DNA from: Nitrospirota bacterium | GTDB taxonomy: Bacteria; Nitrospirota; UBA9217 | DNA: 64,000 nt | Assembly: GCA_963751455.1 (NCBI GenBank) | Contig: CAVVUN010000003.1 | Coordinates: 320,001-384,000 of the forward strand | Direction: 5' to 3' | In this document: piece after piece, positions 6,380 through 43,895 of the stretch | Layout: each line of letters begins with the position of its first letter | Position numbering within the stretch: the stretch's first letter is position 1 | The notes under the pieces: generated by a model | The model's database searches: none | What the model was told of the DNA's origin: nothing | What the model saw: the letters and a program-made list of their open reading frames with translations, nothing else | Translations under genes and position numbers: made by a program

Positions 6380-7024
6380 GTGTTGCTGCCGAATCCTCCA
6401 ATCGTCATAACAATGTTTTTTGCTTTTCTCGGCCTGATCTTTCTTATCATCGCCATTGCGGCCCTGAAGAAAAGAAAAATGTTCGGCACCGCAATGAGTT
6501 TCATGCTGGCGTTGCTGATGCTCTCCTTGTTCGCCCTTTTCGGTACCGTAAGTATTGCCATCCAGGGGTATAACGCCTTGACCAGGGAGGAGCTCGCTGC
6601 AAGGGTGAACGTCGAACCAATAGGAGAGCAGGCGTTCATGGCCAGGTTTTCCATGCCGGATGGCAGCGAAAAAACCTTCTCGCTTGCCGGTGATCAGCTT
6701 TACATTGACGCCCACATTCTCAAATGGAAGCCGTGGGCAAACATATTCGGGATGCACACCTCCTATGAGCTCGATCGTGTTGCAGGCCGCTATGCAATGC
6801 TCCGTGATGAAACAACAAAGGTCCATACAGTGTATACGTTGTCAAAAGAGAAATCCCTGGACATGTTCGATCTGCGGCGCAGGTTTCAGATTCTTAATCC
6901 CCTGCTTGATGCTGAATATGGGTCCGCCACATTCATCAATTCGAACAGCAAGGAGGAATTCAGGGTATTGGTTTCAACCACAGGACTGCTGATTCGCAAG
7001 TCGGAACCTGTGACGGCTCCATAG
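6380..7024 (+). CDS. Hypothetical membrane-anchored protein
   Basis: Two N-terminal TM helices and a soluble domain; start codon uncertain. Confidence 0.7.
   Translation: MLLPNPPIVITMFFAFLGLIFLIIAIAALKKRKMFGTAMSFMLALLMLSLFALFGTVSIAIQGYNALTREELAARVNVEPIGEQAFMARFSMPDGSEKTFSLAGDQLYIDAHILKWKPWANIFGMHTSYELDRVAGRYAMLRDETTKVHTVYTLSKEKSLDMFDLRRRFQILNPLLDAEYGSATFINSNSKEEFRVLVSTTGLLIRKSEPVTAP
6855..7019 (+). repeat. 165-bp direct repeat, copy 1 (3' end of 6380..7024)
   Basis: Same as 7802-7966 except 4 substitutions. Confidence 0.9.
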
Positions 7025-7744: not shown

Positions 7745-7801
7745 AGATAATAATAGCAAAACCAGCCGACGGTTTCAACGTATTTTACCAGAAAGTCAAG
7801 G

Positions 7802-7966
7802 CCCTGGACATGTTCGATCTGCGGCGCAGGTTTCAGATTCTTAATCCCCTGCTTGATGCTGAATATGGGTCCGCCACATTCATCAATTCGAACAGCAGGG
7901 AAGAATTCAGGGTATTGGTTTCCACCACAGGACTGCTGATTCGCAAGTCGGAACCTGTGACAGCTC
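7802..7966 (+). repeat. 165-bp direct repeat, copy 2
   Basis: Duplicate of 6855-7019. Confidence 0.9.
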
Positions 7967-8538
7967 ACTGACCTATGGCGAGCGTTTATGAAACCCTTGA
8001 TTCCCGTCTCGCGATTCTCAGCGAGATGGTACGATAACGGGTCTACGATTTACCCTTGATTCTCGTCTCGTGCAATAAAGCCCCCTCTCCCTTTTTCCCT
8101 CTCCCTCCAGGGGGCTCCAGGGGAGAGGGGCAGGGGTGAGGGAAATTTATCTATCGAGGGTACGACAAGTGGGTCTAAGTATTATTATGCTAAGCGTGAA
8201 TAAAGTTTGAAATTCATGCCGGGAAGAAGTCTGGAAGACCTCCACAGCGCAACCCATTCCATCGAATGGGCCGGTTCCCGCCAGTTTTTTTACGTTTTCC
8301 AAGGCACTTTTCAGGCACAATCCCAACAAAGGCACTATCTGACGGACTCCCTATATCCAGCCGTCGCATAATCGGCTTTCTTAGGCATGTTCTCCGAACG
8401 CTAACCGTGGTGAATGTTTGACTTTGTTTATCATAGTTCTTCCTGTAGTTTTGGTGTTTCAAGCCAACGCAACAATAGAAGCTTTATCAGGAATTTATAT
8501 CGGACATTACCTTTTGGATAGACCTTTCAAACTTCACC

Positions 8539-8567
8539 TTGACACACACACTCGCATAAAATATACT
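8539..8567 (+). promoter_or_regulatory. Pc-like cassette promoter, region A
   Basis: TTGACA-N17-TATACT; flanks are homologous to 38352-38380. Confidence 0.7.
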
Positions 8568-8680
8568 TCGCAAAGATAAAGTTGCACAATATTCATCCCA
8601 GTAAATCCGAATTTCCGTACTTTTTACGATCAAATATTGCCATGCCGGCTTTGCACTTTGGTGCGTCATTATATTAATTT

Positions 8681-8740
8681 TTCACCCCAGTATTACCGGA
8701 TTTTTTGAAATACCGGGGCGGTTTCCGTCCTTTCAAACAC
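8681..8740 (+). other. Conserved structured leader motif, copy A
   Basis: Homologous to 38494-38554; hairpin with compensatory changes. Confidence 0.6.
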
Positions 8741-8742
8741 GT

Positions 8743-8879
8743 GTTCTCCCGGCGCTTCGCGCCGCGAGAACCCCCGGGTGATCGGCTGAACCGTTCTCCC
8801 GCGAAACCAGCGCGGGAGAACAACCGGTTCGATACGGCCTTTGCCCCTGCGGGGCAAGCCGATCACCCGGGGGTTAATT
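8743..8879. repeat. Multi-branch palindromic element ending in GTT before the first cassette
   Basis: AACCCCCGGGTGATCGGCT ... AGCCGATCACCCGGGGGTT stem, with GTTCTC/GAGAAC hairpins in front of and inside it. Confidence 0.65.
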
Positions 8880-8892
8880 TGATAGGAGGCTG

Positions 8893-9571
8893 ATGGTGGC
8901 AGAAAAAACTATCAAAACATTTGCGTCACTACACAAAGCGGTCATGCAAAATGATGAAAAGGGCCATGATTTATCGTGGCGTAAAAGACACCTCGCATAA
9001 ACTCGTACCAAAAGTTTGTCGCTACGAGAACTTCAAAAGATTATCTCTTGAAGAAATGGAGAAGGAAGAGAAAACCATGCTCCGTTTATTCCGCGAGCGT
9101 GCTTGGTCAAGCCTTCCGGATGTCAAGACGACGAACTGGGAGTTGCTTGCGCTTGCGCAACATCATGGGCTACCAACTCGTCTATTAGATTGGTCGCGCA
9201 ACCCTTTAGTGGCGGTTTTCTTTGCAGTGGAGGACGAGCATGACGGAGACAGCTTGATTTATGCATTCAATAACAATAGGTTCATTAAGATCGATGAAAA
9301 CCCCGATCCATTTAAACGGACAAAAGTAGGGAAGTTCATTCCCAACCACATAACACCGCGAATTACAGCCCAAGCCGGCATTTTCACTATACACCCTGAT
9401 CCTCGTCAAGCATACAACTCAGAGGAAATTGATCATTGGATAATCCCGAATAAAAGTCGGCAAGAACTGAAAAGAGTTCTTTATAAATACGGCATCCACA
9501 AGGCCACACTCTTCCCCAACTTGGATGGACTAGCCAAGCATATTGCGTGGCTTAGAACCGATCAGCATTGA
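8893..9571 (+). pseudogene. FRG-domain protein with one extra G near 8961
   Basis: LAQHHGLPTRLLDWS...RITAQAGIF. GGAGG+ATG 8893 gives MVAEKTIKTFASLH, which joins MIYRG in frame if one G of AAAAGGGCC is removed. Confidence 0.8.
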
Positions 9572-9636: not shown

Positions 9637-10491
9637 ATGCTTTTTTCTCAACGAAAAGGCTTAAAAGAAGCTCAAAAAATTGCTCAGATCGATTCGATGG
9701 ATGACGATTTGCGGTTTGGCCTGTGGACAGCTCTTCATGAATGTATATGGAATGAGTTTCAAGGGTATGCCGGTTACAACGACATAAAGCGATCGAATCT
9801 AGAACTTCTTTTTAAACGTTTATGGCATTCATATTTCAAGTACCCCATTGACAATCTAGAGCAATATCACCACCAAGCTATAAAAAGGATAAGGGAGTAT
9901 TTCTTAGAATGCAAATGGTTTGAAGTTTATGACATCATAGAGTTTATAAGTAAGAACTGTCCAGATGAACTCCAAGATGATTTTTGCAAATTTTGCAATG
10001 ATGTTCTTGATAGAGAAAACTCGGCTTATAGATTTGTTGAGGATGAACTAGCTGAAATATCTTCTCCGGTTGAAATTGAATCCATTGAAGAAGCTATTGA
10101 AAAAAGCTCCAAGCTTGGTGGTGTCAGAAAACACCTTAAGACATCCCTCGCCCTATTGTCGGATCGTAAGAAACCTGATTATAGAAACTCCATTAAAGAA
10201 TCGATCAGTGCAGTCGAAGCAATTTCTATTTTGATATCGGCAGATAAAAAAGCAACTCTAGGTACAGCTTTGGCTGTGATTGAACGCACAGGCACAATTC
10301 ATTCTGCACTCAAGAAGAGCTTATCATCGCTTTATGGATACACAAGCGATGCGGATGGAATAAGGCATGCGATGCTGGATGAAGACAAACTTACTTTCAA
10401 TGACGCAAAATTTATGTTGGTCACATGTACTGCTTTTATCAACTATCTTATCGGTAAGGCGAGTGAGTTGGGCTTAAAATTTAAAACATGA
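9637..10491 (+). CDS. AbiJ-NTD/HEPN-like putative anti-phage protein
   Basis: MLFSQRKG...DSMDDDLRFGLW N-terminus; NSIKESISAVE...LYGYTSDADGIRH C-terminus; low GC. Confidence 0.75.
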   Translation: MLFSQRKGLKEAQKIAQIDSMDDDLRFGLWTALHECIWNEFQGYAGYNDIKRSNLELLFKRLWHSYFKYPIDNLEQYHHQAIKRIREYFLECKWFEVYDIIEFISKNCPDELQDDFCKFCNDVLDRENSAYRFVEDELAEISSPVEIESIEEAIEKSSKLGGVRKHLKTSLALLSDRKKPDYRNSIKESISAVEAISILISADKKATLGTALAVIERTGTIHSALKKSLSSLYGYTSDADGIRHAMLDEDKLTFNDAKFMLVTCTAFINYLIGKASELGLKFKT

Positions 10492-10529
10492 TTGCCACGG
10501 CATCTGTAATGTATTGTTTGAGGAAGTGG

Positions 10530-10586
10530 AACTAACCTGGCGGTCCACATCGACTCGCCTTGCGGCGAGTGACCGCCGCGTTAGGC
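10530..10586 (+). other. attC site
   Basis: AACTAAC ... GGCGGTC(C)A / TGACCGCC with an extrahelical base ... GTTAGGC. Confidence 0.85.
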
Positions 10587-10728
10587 TCAGGGCGCTCAAT
10601 GAGGTTGATATTTTTCTCATGCAAGGTCGGAGGTTGACGGAACAACACGGAACAACCAAGAAACGCCTGTGCTGCGGGGCTGATAACCGACTTTCTATCC
10701 ATAGGACTAGAAAAAGTAGCATGAAAAA

Positions 10729-10868
10729 GTAGATACCCACGGGCTTACGCCCGTGGCACTTGAATTCAAAAGAAGCACCCCCTCCTAACTCCCCCTGAAG
10801 GAGGAGGGAAACAAGAGGGACGCATTCAACCACGGGCTAACGCCACGTGGTCTTCTGCTTCGTTTTGG
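10729..10868 (-). mobile_element. 140-bp IS200/IS605-like non-autonomous element, family 1, copy 1
   Basis: Reverse complement of 37438-37577; two subterminal hairpins; lies 3' of TTGAT on the minus strand; no target duplication. Confidence 0.85.
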
Positions 10869-36511: not shown

Positions 36512-36526
36512 CAACGCGCCATAGCC

Positions 36527-38123
36527 CTAAAAATCCAGCGGACTTTTCACCTCTTTCGCCGCCTTGCTCGGAATGCAGTGGGTGTAGATCATAGTGGTTC
36601 GGACGTCTGCATGACCGAGCAGTGTCTGAATCGTGCGCAGGTCGTAGCCCGCCTGCAGGAGATGGGTGGCGTAACTATGCCGGAAGGTGTGCGAAGTGAC
36701 GCGTTTCGTGAGCTTTGCCTTTCTAACTGCTTCGTACAGCGCATCCTGAACATGAGAGTCATGAAGATGATACCCCCGCCGCTCCTTCGTTTCCGCAACA
36801 AAGGTTAACGTTTGCTGCGGGAGAAACCATTGCCAGACAAGCTCCTTCGCGGCTCGTGGATATTTTTTCTCCAGTTGATCATCGAGAAAAACCCCTGCGT
36901 ACCCTCCTCGTCATGCATTTTTTTCACGGTCTCTATTTGGGCCTGAAGCTCCGGCACGATTCTTTGCAGAATAGGCACGGTGCGGGTTTTATCGCCTTTT
37001 CCGCGGACAGTGAGAATGCCGGCGTCAAAATTGAAATCCTTCACCCGCAGTTTACAGCCTTCCGAAATGCGTAACCCGCAGCCGTACCGGAGTTGGGCCA
37101 CAAGCTTGTATGAATATTCGAGATGTCTCAAAACAGCGTCGATTTCCTCGCGGGAAAGAACCACGGGAATGTAATTCGATTTCTTCGCGCGCGGGATGTC
37201 CTTATGGATGCCGAAATCTATCCTTAAAACATGTCTGAACAGAAACAAGAGTGCGTTGAACGCCTGGTTCTGGTGGCTTGCGGATACCTTGCAGTTCACG
37301 GCCAGATCCGTCAGGTACGCCTTCACCTCCGATGGAGACAATTCCGAAGGTGGTTTGTCTTTCAGGTAGTTCTGGAACTTGCGGCTCCAGTCCGCATAAT
37401 GCTTGAACGTTTTTCGAGAGTAATGCCGCAGCTTTATCCAAAACGAAGCAGAAGACCACGTGGCGTTAGCCCGTGGTTGAATGCGTCCCTCTTGTTTCCC
37501 TCCTCCTTCAGGGGGAGTTAGGAGGGGGTGCTTCTTTTGAATTCAAGTGCCACGGGCGTAAGCCCGTGGGTATCTACTTCCGCAGCAAGATTTTCAATGA
37601 CCTTGTCCCACGCCGGGGATTCGGTTTTTTTGAGGCAGCGCCATTCATCGTAGTGTTTGCCGCCCCGGATCCTGGGCGTGTACGGCGCGGAGGGCGCCGG
37701 CGGCTCGCAAACCATCTCGGATTTCTTCGTCGCTGTTGTTGAGCACAGTTGCTGTGCTTGGTTGTATTCTACCTGTAGGCCGCCGCAATGCGGCCCGGCT
37801 GCAGGAGGCGCAATCTGCGCGGCGGCCGACGATGAAATAGTCTTTTTTCCCTGTTGCGAAGCGAAGAACAGCGAAATCGCTTTAGCTGCGTGCTCTATTT
37901 GCATGGAGGATTGATTCTTTGACCGCAGCTTGTCCGCGAACGCCCTCACTTGTTCCGATTTGCCTTCCGGAAGAGGATATTTAGCTCGGAAGTCGAGAAA
38001 ACACAGCAGCCACTTCCGGTAATCGGATCGGGAGAAAAGGGGGACATTCCGTTGTTTCAGAATGCCGTCAAATTTAACCAGAATATCTTTGGGTATGGGT
38101 TGCACGGGTCGTATGAGAATCAA
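36527..38123 (-). pseudogene. intI: Integron integrase with N-terminal extension, interrupted and frameshifted
   Basis: VSASHQNQAFNALLFL, YGCGLR, GKGDK.R; IntI patch [17 protein letters not shown] and [12 protein letters not shown]...LLGH...TTMIYTH in another frame; 140-bp insertion at 37438. Confidence 0.92.
37438..37577 (+). mobile_element. 140-bp IS200/IS605-like non-autonomous element, family 1, copy 2, inside intI
   Basis: Follows TTTAT; clean removal restores AAEIKLRHYSRKT. Confidence 0.85.
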
Positions 38124-38162: not shown

Positions 38163-38191
38163 AATATAGTGAACAAATGTTCACTTGTCAA
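38163..38191 (-). promoter_or_regulatory. PintI with a LexA-like box (GAAC-N4-GTTC) in the spacer
   Basis: TTGACA-N17-TATATT on the minus strand; the spacer is the palindrome AGTGAAC-ATTT-GTTCACT. Confidence 0.7.
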
Positions 38192-38351
38192 GAGGAGAAC
38201 GCAAATATTCTTGAGTCCTCCTTGACTACCAACTCACCGCATATCATCATGCCGGTATTCATAAGAGTGTCTCATTCATGCATGTGTTTTTCTTAATTCG
38301 GGAAATGTGTTCTCGCGTTGTATTCCGATCTGAATATTCAACAACTTTATC

Positions 38352-38380
38352 TTGACAGGCCATAAAGCATAAAATATACT
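38352..38380 (+). promoter_or_regulatory. Pc cassette promoter, region B
   Basis: TTGACA-N17-TATACT, divergent from intI. Confidence 0.75.
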
Positions 38381-38493
38381 CGATTTGCATTTAAAGTTGC
38401 AGAAATTTCATCCTGCCAATTCAGAAACTCAGTATTTGGCAGGGCGAAAACCGCAGTTGCAGAAGTTTACATTATTGAACAAAAATATTTAAT

Positions 38494-38554
38494 TTTCACC
38501 CCGCCATTACCGGATTTTCGGAAATGGCGGGGTGGTTTCCGTCCCTTCAAACAC
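38494..38554 (+). other. Conserved structured leader motif, copy B
   Basis: CCCCGCCATT/AATGGCGGGG stem followed by GGTTTCCGTCCCTTCAAACAC. Confidence 0.6.
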
Positions 38555-38559
38555 TGGTT

Positions 38560-38594
38560 GAACCTGTAGAAAAAGTGCTACAGATTCGTTGGAC
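38560..38594 (+). other. Putative attI site
   Basis: GTTGGAC core just before the first cassette, which ends in GCCCAAC. Confidence 0.5.
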
Positions 38595-38616
38595 ACATGG
38601 AAAGCGTAGTATTCAG

Positions 38617-39108
38617 TGAACAAAGATGTAGAGTCCAAGCTTGCATCGGTATACGAAGAAGTTATGTGGTTCGCGAGTCGTCCTGATACGACCCCATCCG
38701 CTGCACGAGCCTGGTATTACTCACATTGCGGCTAACCGACTGAGAAAATACATTCGTCGATTCTTTGGCAAAGTATCGAAAAGTGCCGCTATCGAGGCAA
38801 AGGTATCTCTTTGTCTTGAACACTTTAAGCGCATGCAGACGACCCCTGACTCAACTTGTAGATCACCATTTGAGACCGGCTTACAGGATGCCGAGGAATT
38901 CATTCGTCTACTTCTCGATTGCGAGCAAGTGCATATTGTGACTGCCAGGGAGAATTACGATGCAATGAAGGCGAAGGGTGACTACGACAAGGCAGGTATA
39001 GTACTTGTTGACTGGGCGTCCGTTTTACCGGACAGACAACACTTCCTTTGGAAAAACATGATTTGTGGGAAAGTAATGAATGCTAACGCACTTTGCGTCT
39101 ACCGCTGA
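38617..39108 (+). pseudogene. First cassette gene, hypothetical, apparently frameshifted
   Basis: GTG-started MNKDVESKLASVYEEVMWF... runs into frame 38641..39108 (THIAANRLR...EHFKRMQT...HIVTAREN). Confidence 0.5.
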
Positions 39109-39135
39109 GGTGCGCAGAGATGCCAAGACGTACAG

Positions 39136-39177
39136 GCCCAACAGCCAGATTGATACTCAGATCTGGCAACGCTTATT
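39136..39177 (+). other. Degenerate or truncated attC
   Basis: GCCCAAC, then GCCAGAT/ATCTGGC hairpin, ending GCT instead of GTT. Confidence 0.45.
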
Positions 39178-39478
39178 TTCTGATTTTTGATTCAAGCAGG
39201 GCAACCCGTTTTGCAAGAGCGTCGAATTCATCGTAATCGACTTTTCTTTTCAGCTCAACCTTTAGAAATTGGACATCGGATTTAATGATTTGTACGTCTT
39301 CCATCAATGAGCCGATCATTTCGGTGTGGATCTTTTGAATTGATTTGATATCCTGGTATTGCTCGGCAATAAGATTGATCTTGGATTCGAGGTCTTCCTT
39401 GAAGATACCGACGACATGTTGAAATTCAGTTCGCTGTTCAGTAAGAATTTCTTTTAATTTATTCTCGGTAATCTCCAT
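39173..39478 (-). CDS. Coiled-coil hypothetical protein; antisense cassette with its own promoter
   Basis: AAGGAG RBS; TTGACA-N17-TAATAT on the minus strand (about 39510-39538). Confidence 0.7.
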   Translation of the reverse strand: MEITENKLKEILTEQRTEFQHVVGIFKEDLESKINLIAEQYQDIKSIQKIHTEMIGSLMEDVQIIKSDVQFLKVELKRKVDYDEFDALAKRVALLESKIRK

Positions 39479-39559
39479 GGCTGCAATCTCCTTCTTTATG
39501 GATGCTTAGATATTATACGTGGAACCGCATTTTGTCAAGCTATCTCTCCCGGCAAAATA

Positions 39560-39625
39560 TTCCAACTACGCGCTCGAAAGAGTCCGGGCGATAAACCCGC
39601 CCGGCTCCTCAGCGCGGCGTTGGCC
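39560..39625 (+). other. attC site
   Basis: TTCCAAC ... CGCGCT(C)GA / TCAGCGCG ... GTTGGCC. Confidence 0.85.
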
Positions 39626-39777
39626 CCGGCATGAAAAATGTGTCTAAATAGAGTCTGTATTTAAATTGCCTTTCGATCTTTTGCTTGTCATTCCTAAACC
39701 TTTAGAAACCTTTAGGAAACCTTTAGGGTCAAGTCTTTTTCGTTGCATTTCATTCTGATTTCTGCTACAGTCGCCCC

Positions 39778-39909
39778 ATGGCCCGACCTCTAAGAATAGA
39801 ATATGCCGGTGCGGTCTATCACGTAACATCCCGTGGCAACGAGAAAAAGCCCGTATTCAAAAACGACCAGGACCGCGAAAACTTCCTGAACACGGTCCAG
39901 CACGTCAAT
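39778..39909 (+). pseudogene. N-terminal fragment of a Y1/RAYT transposase
   Basis: MARPLRIEYAGAVYHVTSRGNEKKPVF; homology stops where intron sequence begins. Confidence 0.85.
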
Positions 39910-41797
39910 GCCACTACACCTGTCGGCTCCGGCCCCTCTCAGAACCGTGCTTGCGCTATTTACGCACACGGCTCCTCACATGGTCAATTCACGGGTACTT
40001 GGAACATACTGACCTTTATTCGTGGTTTCGGTAATGGAAAACGCTGTAGCATCTCCGAGAACTCCTCCCAGTTGAGGCACCCTCGCCTACCTCGGCGATT
40101 CAGCCATTTCATGAGGACCTTTTCCACTTCCGCGGCAAATCTCTTGATTCCGGGAAGATTATCCGTCACGCCGTAATAGGCAAAATGACCTCTCAGTTTT
40201 GCTTTGGCCGTCCTCCATAGGTCCGCTGTCTTCAGGGTCCTGGCGCTTTTCAGCCATTCCTTGAAGACTTTCACCTTGGCGGTGAATTTCTTGCGGGCGG
40301 TCATCCGCTTCATCCGAAACCCCGTGCCGTCTCTTCTGGCGCCGCAGTAGTGGGTGAATCCCAAAAAGTCAAACGTCTCCGGTCTCTCACCTTTTGCTTT
40401 GGCGTTTTGTACGGCATATCTGCCAAATTTCAGCACTCTGGTTTTCGTCGGTTCCACTTCAAGCCCGAATTTTCCCAGTCTGATACCCAGTTCGCGGCGG
40501 AACGTCGCCGCGTCTGTTTCGCGCTGGAAGCAGACGACAAAGTCGTCGGCGTATCGGACCAGCCGGGCAAACCCGGTGCACTGCTTGCGGATTACTTTCT
40601 CGAACCAGAGGTCAAGGGCATAGTGAAGGTAGATGTTGGCCAGAAGCGGGGAGATGACACTACCTTGCGGAGTGCCTTCGTCGCTTACCGTTGTCGTCCC
40701 GTCTTCATATACCCCAGCCTTGAGGAAACGTCTCACCATGCGATGTATCCGTTTGTCACTTATCCGGTGTTCCAGAAATTTCATCAACCAGTCCTGGTTC
40801 ACGTTGTCGAAGAAACCTTTGATGTCCGCTTCGACTATGTGGTTGACCGGCTTGCCTTCCACGGAGCCGCTCAAGGCTCTGAGCGCGCCGTGACAACTTC
40901 TGCCGGGTCGGAATCCATAGGAATCATCTATGAAGTCCTGTTCAAATACTGATTCCAGTATCCGTACCAGTCCCGCCTGGACAAGTTTGTCTTCAAAGCA
41001 TGGTATCCCCAAGGGGCGTTGTTTGGCGCTGCCCGGTTTGGGTATGTACTTTCGCCGGACAGGTTGCGGTCGGTATGCCATCCGGTGCAGCCTGTCTGTC
41101 AGGTTCAACAGATTGGCGTCGAGGTTCTCGGCATACTCGGCCTTGGTCATGTCGTCAATGCCGGCGGCTGCGTCTTTCCTCAGCCGCCCGTAGCATTCCC
41201 GCAGCAGCTCTTCGTTCATCAGGTGATACAGGCTGGTGAATTTGAACGAAGGTTCTTTACGGGCCTTCTCCGCTATGCGGCGCAGTTTCGTTGTCACCGA
41301 TTGCCCGTCACTGGGTACGGTCGGTGTCGCCTCACGCCGCGCTACCATATGTGGTCTCCTTTCCTCCAGCAGCGTTACCCGCCTTCATCGGTACTACGAG
41401 ACCATCCGACTCCCCGCGCATTTTCTGCCTTCCTCCCTCTTCGGTTGTTACGGCATACTCCCCTTACGAGAAGAGTGCGCGGGGCCTCCCGGGTTTCCGC
41501 GTAATCACCTTGTCAGACATGCCATGGTCTCTGACCCCGAGGAAGCGAACATACCCTTGCCATTGACGGTTATGTTCATATTGACTTCCGACATCTTTCA
41601 CTGCGTCGTCCTTCCCATCGCGTCACTTACGGGGCTCAATCCCTTCAACCTTGCGGCTTACGGCCTATCTGCTCGCTGTCCTACGCTTAAAACTGCATGT
41701 TGCCACACAGCCTCCAAGGACTCGCTACCCGGTAGCTGGCCTGCCTTCCGGGGCGGGATTCACACCCGCTTGATTACGCGACCTTGCCCGGCCGCAC
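39910..41797 (-). mobile_element. Group II intron (class E-like), D6 apparently truncated
   Basis: 5' GTGCG at 41797; D5 GAGCCGTGTGCG...GCACGGTTC; no canonical D6 3' end seen. Confidence 0.85.
39984..41348 (-). CDS. ltrA: Group II intron reverse transcriptase/maturase without endonuclease domain
   Basis: RPLGIP..EDK.VQ, SYGFRPGRS, DIKGFFD, GTPQG, RYADDF, FDFLGF. Confidence 0.95.
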   Translation of the reverse strand: MVARREATPTVPSDGQSVTTKLRRIAEKARKEPSFKFTSLYHLMNEELLRECYGRLRKDAAAGIDDMTKAEYAENLDANLLNLTDRLHRMAYRPQPVRRKYIPKPGSAKQRPLGIPCFEDKLVQAGLVRILESVFEQDFIDDSYGFRPGRSCHGALRALSGSVEGKPVNHIVEADIKGFFDNVNQDWLMKFLEHRISDKRIHRMVRRFLKAGVYEDGTTTVSDEGTPQGSVISPLLANIYLHYALDLWFEKVIRKQCTGFARLVRYADDFVVCFQRETDAATFRRELGIRLGKFGLEVEPTKTRVLKFGRYAVQNAKAKGERPETFDFLGFTHYCGARRDGTGFRMKRMTARKKFTAKVKVFKEWLKSARTLKTADLWRTAKAKLRGHFAYYGVTDNLPGIKRFAAEVEKVLMKWLNRRGRRGCLNWEEFSEMLQRFPLPKPRIKVSMFQVPVN

Positions 41798-41819
41798 AAA
41801 AGACTTGACCCTAAAGATT

Positions 41820-42270
41820 TCTTTTCGCATCGGCGTCATAGCATACAACCTGTTTCTCGGGTTTCGGTGCCTTGCCTGTCCGTCCTCGTGGGGCCGCTAC
41901 ACGATGGCGACATTCCGGTGGAAACTGATCCAGCTGGCTGGCAAGATCGTCCATCATGCCGGTCAGATCATTCTGAAACTCACGGCGGAGACGGACCTGC
42001 TTTTGTTCATTCAGGGCATACGGCAGCGTTGCTATGAGGAGAGTTTGGCAACGACCTGATACCTGTTTCGAGGATCGGAAAGGGACGGAAAATAACGCGG
42101 CGGGGGGAAGACTGTCTCCAGTCGCGCATGGCGCATGTTCGGATAGCCGTAGCCGCCATCCGATGGAGCATGCTGTCGACAAAGTAGCCTCACTGTAGGA
42201 TGGCAGCTGAAAAAAACCGCTGTTTGTCCTCTCGGCGCAACGTGATCAGATTTCTATCGCTGTGCTTGGG
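41820..42270 (+). pseudogene. 3' remnant of a second IS1380-family element
   Basis: FRIGVIAYNL...TFRWKLIQLAGKIVHHAGQIILKL, stop at 42059; probable right end near CTTGGG (42270). Confidence 0.7.
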
Positions 42271-42339
42271 CCCAACACTTGACTTGTCCTGGAATGTGGC
42301 TTATTATAGCTATGGATGTCCACATTATAAGGAGGGGCT

Positions 42340-42573
42340 ATGAGAACCATACAAATGACCTTAGATGATGAATTAGTTGCAACAGTTGACCAGATCGTCA
42401 AAAAGTTAAAAACAACCCGATCTGCTTTTACACGCAAGGCATTAAGGAATGCCGTCAAACAGGTCAATGTCAACCAGCTCGAAAAAAAGCACAAAAAAGG
42501 ATACGGGCAGCACCCTGCCGACAAAACTGAATTTACCGTCTGGGAGTCAGAGCAAGAATGGGGTGATTTATGA
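42340..42573 (+). CDS. Ribbon-helix-helix antitoxin
   Basis: MRTIQMTLDDELV...RSAFTRKAL; AAGGAGG RBS. Confidence 0.88.
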   Translation: MRTIQMTLDDELVATVDQIVKKLKTTRSAFTRKALRNAVKQVNVNQLEKKHKKGYGQHPADKTEFTVWESEQEWGDL

Positions 42574-42881
42574 AGCGGGGTGAGGTGCGATGGTATAAGT
42601 TCAAGCATCCTGATAAAAAAAGTCCGGTAGTTATTTTAACAAGAAATTCAATCTTGGAATACTTGGGTGAAGTTACTATCGCGCCTGTAACTTCGACAAT
42701 AAGAGATATTCCCAGCGAAGTGCTTCTGTCTCGCTTAGATGGCATGCATAATGATTGTGCCATTAATTGTGACCACATACAAACGGTGTCAAAATCAAAC
42801 GTCGGATCGATGATCACCTCCTTATCAAAAGAAAAGCTAAGCGAAGTTCGTGACGCTATCAATTTTGCCTTGAATCTCTAA
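42570..42881 (+). CDS. PemK/MazF-family toxin
   Basis: MKRGEVRW...PDKKSPVVILTR...IAPVTS. Confidence 0.88.
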   Translation: MKRGEVRWYKFKHPDKKSPVVILTRNSILEYLGEVTIAPVTSTIRDIPSEVLLSRLDGMHNDCAINCDHIQTVSKSNVGSMITSLSKEKLSEVRDAINFALNL

Positions 42882-42890
42882 TTTCGCATT

Positions 42891-42950
42891 GCACTACCAA
42901 CGGCTCGACACCGTCCGGGTTTCGCCCGGCGGGTCAGCCGCGTGTTGTAC
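42891..42950 (+). other. attC site with mutated R''
   Basis: GCACTAC ... CGGCT(C)GA / TCAGCCG ... GTTGTAC. Confidence 0.75.
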
Positions 42951-43149
42951 AAGCTCCAGGCAGAGGAGATTTATATTTTCTATTATCAGACGTAAACTAT
43001 TTCCGGAGGAAATCTTATGGCTGTATTTTTCTGGATCACAGATTTGTTGACCCCAGTGATCATTACCATCTCTCGCGGGCGTACAAATGCACTTGACGGT
43101 AGTGCTCTATGCGGGTAAACTGTCTTAAAGCCCGAAAGGGGGTGATCCA

Positions 43150-43425
43150 ATGACCAAGCTCATTATAGAGTCGGACGATACATGGACACGCGAGAAAATT
43201 AAGTTCGCTATTGATACTGAAATCCATCTTTTGAAAAAGGCTGCCGATAAAATCCAGGAAAAAATTAACGGCTTTGAGAAAGCGTATGGCCCGTTAGATC
43301 GAGACAAACTCTATGGCAAACTGAGCGACATGGTTCTTGTGGAGTGGGAAGGAGAAATAGAATCGCTCAGGCGGGTGCGGCACAAATTGAAATCCTTGGA
43401 GGAGATCAATTTTGAGTATCGATAG
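43150..43425 (+). CDS. Putative antitoxin paired with a DUF6516-like protein
   Basis: FEKAYG...DMVLVEWEGE; overlaps the next gene; own promoter TTGACG...TAAACT. Confidence 0.7.
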   Translation: MTKLIIESDDTWTREKIKFAIDTEIHLLKKAADKIQEKINGFEKAYGPLDRDKLYGKLSDMVLVEWEGEIESLRRVRHKLKSLEEINFEYR

Positions 43426-43798
43426 CTATGTCGCCGACTTTGAACGGCGCATCGCCCAAACTCCCCTCATTTCTTCCTATAACCTCACTATTGATAGAAA
43501 AACATCGGATCTTGCTTATATCTTTGGTACACTGGACTTACGCAACGGCGTCACGGTAGATTTCAAAGAGTATATCGAAGACACCGGTGATAGAAACCAG
43601 AAGTTCATGTACGGATATAACGTTCGGCAGGACGCAAATATACTGTTCCGCTACGACAATTCCCCGGACCCAAAGACGCGGAAGCTCGCTTCGTTTCCTC
43701 ACCATAAACACACGAAAAACGGTGAAGTCATCGCGTCGGCCGAGGTTGACCTTTTCACTGTGATCGACGAAATAGAAAAAGTAATTGAGCCTGAGTAA
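43412..43798 (+). CDS. DUF6516-like putative toxin
   Basis: YGYN...LFRYDNSPD...SFPHHKH; TTG start. Confidence 0.75.
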   Translation: MSIDSYVADFERRIAQTPLISSYNLTIDRKTSDLAYIFGTLDLRNGVTVDFKEYIEDTGDRNQKFMYGYNVRQDANILFRYDNSPDPKTRKLASFPHHKHTKNGEVIASAEVDLFTVIDEIEKVIEPE

Positions 43799-43837
43799 AG
43801 CCTAAATAACTGAATCTGCGCGATCACGTCACAATGA

Positions 43838-43895
43838 TTCCAACCATCGGCTCGAGAGGGTCGCAAAAACCGCGCTCCTCAGCCGGCCGTTAAAG
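43838..43895 (+). other. attC site
   Basis: TTCCAAC ... CGGCT(C)GA / TCAGCCG ... GTTAAAG. Confidence 0.85.

Follow-up and report, generated by a model that had tools for sequence, protein, structure and literature searches.

Leaders of cassette arrays in a Nitrospirota genome end in an attI site preceded by inverted repeats of its half-site

The leader upstream of two cassette arrays in a 64,000-nucleotide window from a Nitrospirota bacterium (the window being the whole stretch of DNA analysed) ends in an attI site with the crossover at G^TT, and the hairpin drawn in it does not covary like RNA, so that a reading as covarying RNA fails. The leader is probably the fixed head of an integron, consisting of a predicted promoter and attI, in which two palindromes would provide extra double-stranded DNA binding sites for the integrase. 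By analogy with DR1/DR2 of attI1, the most likely role of these palindromes, R1 and R2, is that of accessory IntI sites, here arranged as inverted pairs.

The window is part of C3, one of the 15 contigs that make up a 5.7-Mb assembly (100% complete, 5.37% contamination). The initial annotation had described positions 8530-8740 and 38343-38554 as homologous; indeed, the alignment pairs 8530-8745 with 38343-38559, with 65% identity over 210 nt and 84% over a 70-nt core (E 7.5e-15 in a search against the whole genome). The promoter pattern TTGACA-N17-TATACT, AAAGTTGCA and TTCATCC were found in both leaders, as had been reported. What had been taken for a two-copy element is present in the genome as eight full copies (A to h, named below) plus one promoter-only fragment, and the predicted array-facing promoter (Pc) matches 11/12 of the consensus at constant distance in 8/8 of these copies. 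The claimed 60-nt motif exists; it consists of palindrome R2 together with the attI simple site, and it terminates precisely at the attI crossover. GTTTCCGTCCC resembles CRISPR repeats and hammerhead cores; both identities were dismissed, since each locus has the motif only once and it stops at the cassette crossover.

Pattern searches gave 94 leader sites, 74 of them distinct over the last 80 nt. An attC model, trained on 35 of 37 heuristic matches that all lay 3' of these leader sites, yielded 71 matches in 66 loci, and the 69 with E below 0.1 were used. All 69 are found 3' of the leader sites and have the same orientation as the array, with none upstream and none on the opposite strand. Since the model was trained on downstream matches, a model-free scan served as a check, and it counted 0.38 attC-like sites per kb downstream vs 0.025 upstream. 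Moreover, sequences diverge immediately 3' of the GTT core, where the cassette boundary lies, and in 45 first cassettes (some first attCs having surely been missed) the four bases 3' of GTT agreed with the reverse complement of the first R'' in 106 matches, with 57.9 expected (0/20000 permutations). In the whole genome, 150 candidates were scored and 70 attC matches obtained.

Both leaders precede attC-bearing cassettes, in agreement with the initial annotation, and its description of copy A as a second, integrase-less platform holds: A has a genuine attI, into which a cassette without an ORF is integrated; the R' GTTCTCC of this cassette, 3' of the crossover, complements its R'' CGAGAAC (3/4 bases in the core test), and the core GTT|CTCC is supplied by the same cassette. 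The bottom strand of its attC has a folding energy of -47.4 kcal/mol. Array A falls under the CALIN definition, with two attC (8765-8879 and 10530-10586; model matches at 8815-8879, weak, and 10530-10586) and no intI upstream. The statement that only B has intI is right for A, and at B the gene is a pseudogene (Table 1). Cassettes of array B encode PemK-like and TumE toxin-antitoxin proteins, and the array is interrupted by a group II intron (reverse transcriptase at 39984-41348, minus strand). This intron (39778-41800) splits the start of a Y1/REP-associated transposase gene, and similar transposase genes were found at other arrays (copy d, contig C6). ORF-less cassettes with a long branched attC recur in first position (window 8744-8879, loci L077 and L153). 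Upstream of platform A, a 175-bp partial gene duplication (6845-7019 and 7792-7966, 95%) surrounds a small toxin-antitoxin-like pair.

Table 1. Positions of the leader, cassette and integrase features in the window.
Feature	Position	Strand	Remarks
CTTCCTG(T/A)A ... GTT-N10-GMAAC motif	8439..8476	+	5' edge of platform A
Predicted Pc promoter, copy A	8539..8567	+	TTGACA-17-TATACT; 178 nt before end of attI GTT
Palindrome R1, copy A	8593..8632	.	two inverted attI L half-sites; right arm degenerate
Palindrome R2, copy A	8682..8721	.	hairpin of the initial annotation; two inverted attI-L-like half-sites, 8-bp centre
attI simple site, copy A	8725..8749	+	extended L site 8725-8740; crossover G8743^T8744
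ORF-less first cassette, array A	8744..8879	+	attC 8765-8879, R'' CGAGAAC, R' GTTAATT
FRG-domain cassette ORF	8921..9571	+	start uncertain; its attC unrecognised by the model
AbiJ-NTD4 cassette	9637..10586	+	gene 9637-10491, attC 10530-10586
Long integron integrase pseudogene, copy B	36520..38123	-	extra N-terminal SAM-like domain
intI promoter region, copy B	38169..38191	-	TTGACA 38186-38191 adjoining GTGAAC-N4-GTTCAC box
Predicted Pc promoter, copy B	38352..38380	+	TTGACA-N17-TATACT
Palindrome R1, copy B	38408..38447	.	
Palindrome R2, copy B	38496..38535	.	
attI simple site, copy B	38539..38563	+	crossover G38557^T38558; core GTT|GAAC
Array B	38558..43895	+	attC 39560-39625, 42891-42950, 43838-43895

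R1 and R2 are paralogous palindromes of 40 bp. Their four arms share CCGYCCCRYCAWWWMC with the attI L site, giving a five-fold half-site repeat (consensus R1L tCgTCCcgCcAATTCC, R1R cCGcCccgccAAaTAC, R2L TCgCCCCgccATTACC, R2R CCGCCCCgccATTTCC and attI-L CCGTCCCaTCAaAcAC); the arms follow the pattern CCG-N7-A, and the A that is invariant in them stands where the recombinase box has the T of GTT. The integrase box is repeated 5' of the simple site, as two inverted pairs. A matrix built from the arms only placed attI-L among the top 5 of about 300 16-mers in 35/35 leaders, the attI-L columns of these pattern-found leaders being biased by the search pattern; in the compact, palindrome-less attI sites, which were chosen by intI and are unbiased, it ranked attI-L first of 170 in 8/13 and in the top two in 10/13. 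Counted from the end of GTT, an A at -54 and a T at -35 are constant in 61/63 leaders, the spacing from palindrome to crossover is near-invariant (61/63), and the best nine palindrome scores genome-wide all fall inside these leaders. Leaders of different lineages are 62-76% identical, yet their invariant columns and spacing are constant. Arms and attI-L were found to change together among 18 diverged leaders, both for R2R with attL (41/20000) and for R2L with attL, which are direct repeats unable to pair (230/20000), although these rows are mutually related, some are mis-registered and two were dropped. In deep lineages the arms remain complementary despite wholesale sequence change (175 vs 110.6, 0/20000), in rows registered on that pair, a pattern that a hairpin would produce as well. 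The leader type follows the IntI tree (30 rows; 4 changes vs 14.6 shuffled), which is also expected from physical linkage.

As accessory sites, the palindromes might act as follows. Cassettes would enter at G^TT of an attI lying 178 bp beyond the predicted cassette promoter, and IntI protomers would occupy R1 and R2 as inverted pairs. Since the centres of these pairs appear too wide for cutting (14 bp between the 7-bp boxes vs 5 bp in the simple site), R1 and R2 would stay uncut and hold IntI near the crossover, so favouring attC x attI insertion like DR1/DR2 in attI1. Most intI-selected loci of the family in which an attI core was found have a compact attI devoid of R1 and R2, so long IntIs can do without these palindromes; a need of the extra N-terminal IntI domain for R1/R2 was rejected as obligatory, long IntIs often occurring with compact attIs.

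Three classes of leader were distinguished, and the counts of intI given for them refer to sites for which 700 nt or more of upstream sequence was available. Class I, with R1 and R2 and, in the eight copies of this genome, a sigma-70 consensus, has intI or a remnant of it in 16 cases and none in 17. Class II, with R2 only, lacks intI in 22/22; 25/28 of its leaders carry GG-N10-GC at a fixed position, compared with 2/35 of class I, a motif that resembles the sigma-54 consensus. Sigma-54-like TGGCA-N7-TTGC stands immediately 5' of R2 in class II leaders such as L030, L043 and L073, and was seen also in the intI-linked L111, L129, L143 and L147, there 3' of the sigma-70 consensus. Class III has ATATAC..TAGAT repeats in place of R1/R2 and the same attI, with intI absent in 5/5. 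An ORF of about 115 aa (LKPGQ.GTK.L...YGD.L.CVR.RYD; weak DUF5710 match) lies either between an intI and its array or 5' of class III heads (L044:606-953; L106, L107, L125, L138, L139, L141, L146; genome C2:~652300 and C15:~1717100); its product is possibly a dedicated DNA-binding partner.

An alternative to accessory integrase sites is a hairpin that R2 would form in the leader RNA or in DNA, either extruded or single-stranded, perhaps switching between R2L:R2R and R2R:attI-L. Over the 36 class I rows, of which 35 are distinct, the stem of copy B, with its 17 pairs, has a covariation score of 0.130, against 0.130 +/- 0.012 for shuffled columns (260/500), and 79.4% of stem cells pair vs 79.0% after shuffling; the two pairs whose change from GT/AC to CC/GG had been read as compensatory are unpaired in 16/35 and 11/35 of these leaders. 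In class II, 59% of cells pair over 28 leaders (208/500). RNAalifold on the 165-nt leader returned only a 4-bp stem with zero double-sided changes. The stem letters are as first given, the stem of copy A carrying an A-C mismatch, and while copy B has a stable fold (-29.9 kcal/mol, z -4.1), copy A folds otherwise than in the hairpin (z = 0.15). Complementarity does exceed that of slid controls (79% vs 27-52%, class I) and, as described above, persists across deep lineages, and R2R:attI-L is the predicted fold in 40/63 leaders; the R2L:R2R stem, however, is predicted in only 22/63, arms of one type face arms of the other type in L003, L004, L005 and L015, the spacing is rigid, and no terminator tail was seen 3' of R2. 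The Rfam scan that had been called for gave no match at the gathering threshold in leader A or B, the sole match in the window being the group II intron. In class II, furthermore, the sigma-54-like motif would start the transcript inside the left arm. We regard a hairpin as quite unlikely.

R1 and R2 could instead be operator sites for some other dimeric protein, such as a repressor or a host factor, that governs Pc read-through or gives the attI complex its shape, their likeness to attI-L arising because the same protein also binds the L flank. R1 begins 25 bp past the -10 box, a usual operator position, and the class III leaders, which keep attI and exchange R1/R2 for repeats beside the small conserved ORF, indicate that this region swaps operator-like modules. 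Such operators are nevertheless unlikely: the arms carry the invariant A matching the T of GTT and resemble L sites even in compact attIs, and high-scoring copies elsewhere in the genome, as a regulon would lead one to expect, were not found. Finally, the palindromes may be relics without a function, left by old duplications of attI or by attI x attI events and copied along with the platform. The decay of the R1 right arm in the lineage of A, c and e and of the R2 left arm in copies g and h would fit with this, as would the compact attIs that manage without either palindrome, but invariant columns and constant spacing at the identities given above, together with symmetry kept at depth, make mere relics very improbable.

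The platforms would outlast their intI, be retained because first cassettes are expressed from them, and receive cassettes in trans at times when there is an intact IntI. Of the platforms in this genome, A, c, e and f have no upstream intI, and B, d, g and h have one. All four of these neighbouring intI are broken. In B, a MITE of about 139 bp (~37441-37580) interrupts the gene, which also has a frameshift at about 36890-36904; d has lost its C-terminus, g is truncated close to residue 185, and h has an insertion with a stop. The MITE has seven copies in the genome at 99-100% identity, among them the one in intI B and one at 10727-10865 in array A. The copy-d protein belongs to the IntI family (TIGR02249, 292 bits; cut-off 265), and an intact IntI of 478 aa is encoded at locus L105. 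As no intact intI was found in this assembly, activity in trans would here be past or reliant on an incoming gene; a search of viral contigs found no IntI relative.

Housekeeping genes precede many integrase-less platforms. Three sets of platforms (L030/L084/L100, L049/L078/L095 and L053/L057) have common upstream DNA (430-1000 nt) and no intI, and differ in the bases right after GTT. The simplest reading of different first cassettes at the same integrase-less locus in relatives suggests capture in trans after loss of intI, which parallel intI loss could mimic. Copies A and c share 99% identity, yet their flanks and cassettes are unrelated, which means that platforms also get copied. Graded intI remnants (aa 8-27, 7-58, 7-75, 6-95 and 7-185) point to erosion. 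A mobile unit with exact ends was considered for the solo platforms and is unsupported, the shared upstream limits varying from about -75 to -400 and the intI remnants being graded. The motif CTTCCTG(T/A)A..GTT-N10-GMAAC stands 5' of many integrase-less platforms and also of some AT-rich accessory genes; it scored above 15 in 12/53 solo leaders (10 of them seeds) and in 0/18 intI-linked ones, and since ordinary genes are preceded by it too, it is not a proven element end. It occurs as well at genome C6:115225, C15:793677, C3:174486 and C3:66641 and three times in L103, and through it two more platform-like heads came to light in this genome.

Some ten more attI-like heads, of other types, were recognised by pattern and by eye 5' of attC clusters and are to be regarded as candidates only. 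The leader motif was present in 18/63 genomes of one Nitrospirota family; a search of 237 genomes from the rest of the phylum found it in none. We tentatively consider a distributed integron, possible though far from secured, in which stand-alone pads with differing promoters (sigma-70, sigma-54-like and operator-repeat type, within the one family) would be copied to new positions on the chromosome and loaded in trans by a two-domain IntI docking on inverted accessory sites, so that captured genes would come under different regulons.

The class 1 attI1 has a promoter, as is predicted here, and then likewise a double-stranded simple site made up of a degenerate L box, a 5-bp spacer and a crossover at G^TT, with further copies of the integrase site 5' of it (PMC8946536, PMC3146285). 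There DR1/DR2 are extra IntI sites that favour attI1 x attC, attI co-evolving with its IntI (PMC8946536), and they may retain IntI near the simple site (PMC3146285). Unlike attI1, which has two direct repeats, the leaders described here have four extra half-sites in two inverted pairs, the half-sites being 16 bp with a CCGYCCC flank in a leader of about 180 nt, and their IntI is about 480-500 aa long, with an extra N-terminal SAM-like domain. Cis-regulatory leader RNAs such as riboswitches and attenuators share the position between promoter and first gene and can be drawn as a stem-loop, but covariation, terminator and Rfam match are all absent here. A complete integron has an intact intI next to attI; A has no intI, and B has a pseudogene.

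CALINs also are cassette arrays devoid of a nearby intI, and intI loss, rearrangement and secondary-site insertion have been proposed as their origins (PMC4889954); the arrays here differ in retaining a complete conserved head of predicted promoter and attI and in that same-locus copies have different first cassettes. The attI search of IntegronFinder covers classes 1-3 only (PMC4889954, PMC9024848), so heads of this kind would go unseen. Chromosomal integrons have been reported with several intI per genome, frequent pseudogenes and an IntI clade about 120 aa longer (Nemergut 2008, PMC2426708). Several broken intI in our genome recall these and the Xanthomonas arrays, from which eight related platforms in one genome, with the candidate heads of other types, set it apart. 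Already known are thus CALINs and their proposed origins, intI pseudogenes, multiple intI per genome and long IntIs; in the literature covered (main texts, few subscription papers, one spelling of sigma-54) there was no account of this attI, of inverted accessory pairs or of a sigma-54 cassette promoter.

attI sites outside classes 1-3 are barely described, and integrase-less arrays are usually taken as decayed stock. A new anatomy of attI emerges from the 74 distinct heads described here. Many 'CALINs' of this family appear to retain a head for insertion and expression that is intact, and they seem still to capture cassettes. The platforms offer a direct test of the origin and activity of CALINs, and the leaders are ready substrates for studying accessory-site function with a long IntI; a false RNA candidate has also been removed.

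GTGAAC-N4-GTTCAC lies between -35 and -10 of the intI promoter and of that of a dinB-like gene; its positions are window 38169-38184 and genome C1:553897, C1:612754, C2:413656, C2:525828 and C2:655168. It is likely the LexA box, or SOS operator, of this Nitrospirota family, which would imply SOS control of one intI lineage. A second IntI clade, at loci with a compact attI (L109, L110, L116, L120, L131 and L150), has tandem (G/A)CATATTAGT / GAATATTAGTC repeats in its promoter, and their presence in place of the GAAC-N4-GTTC box suggests another regulator.
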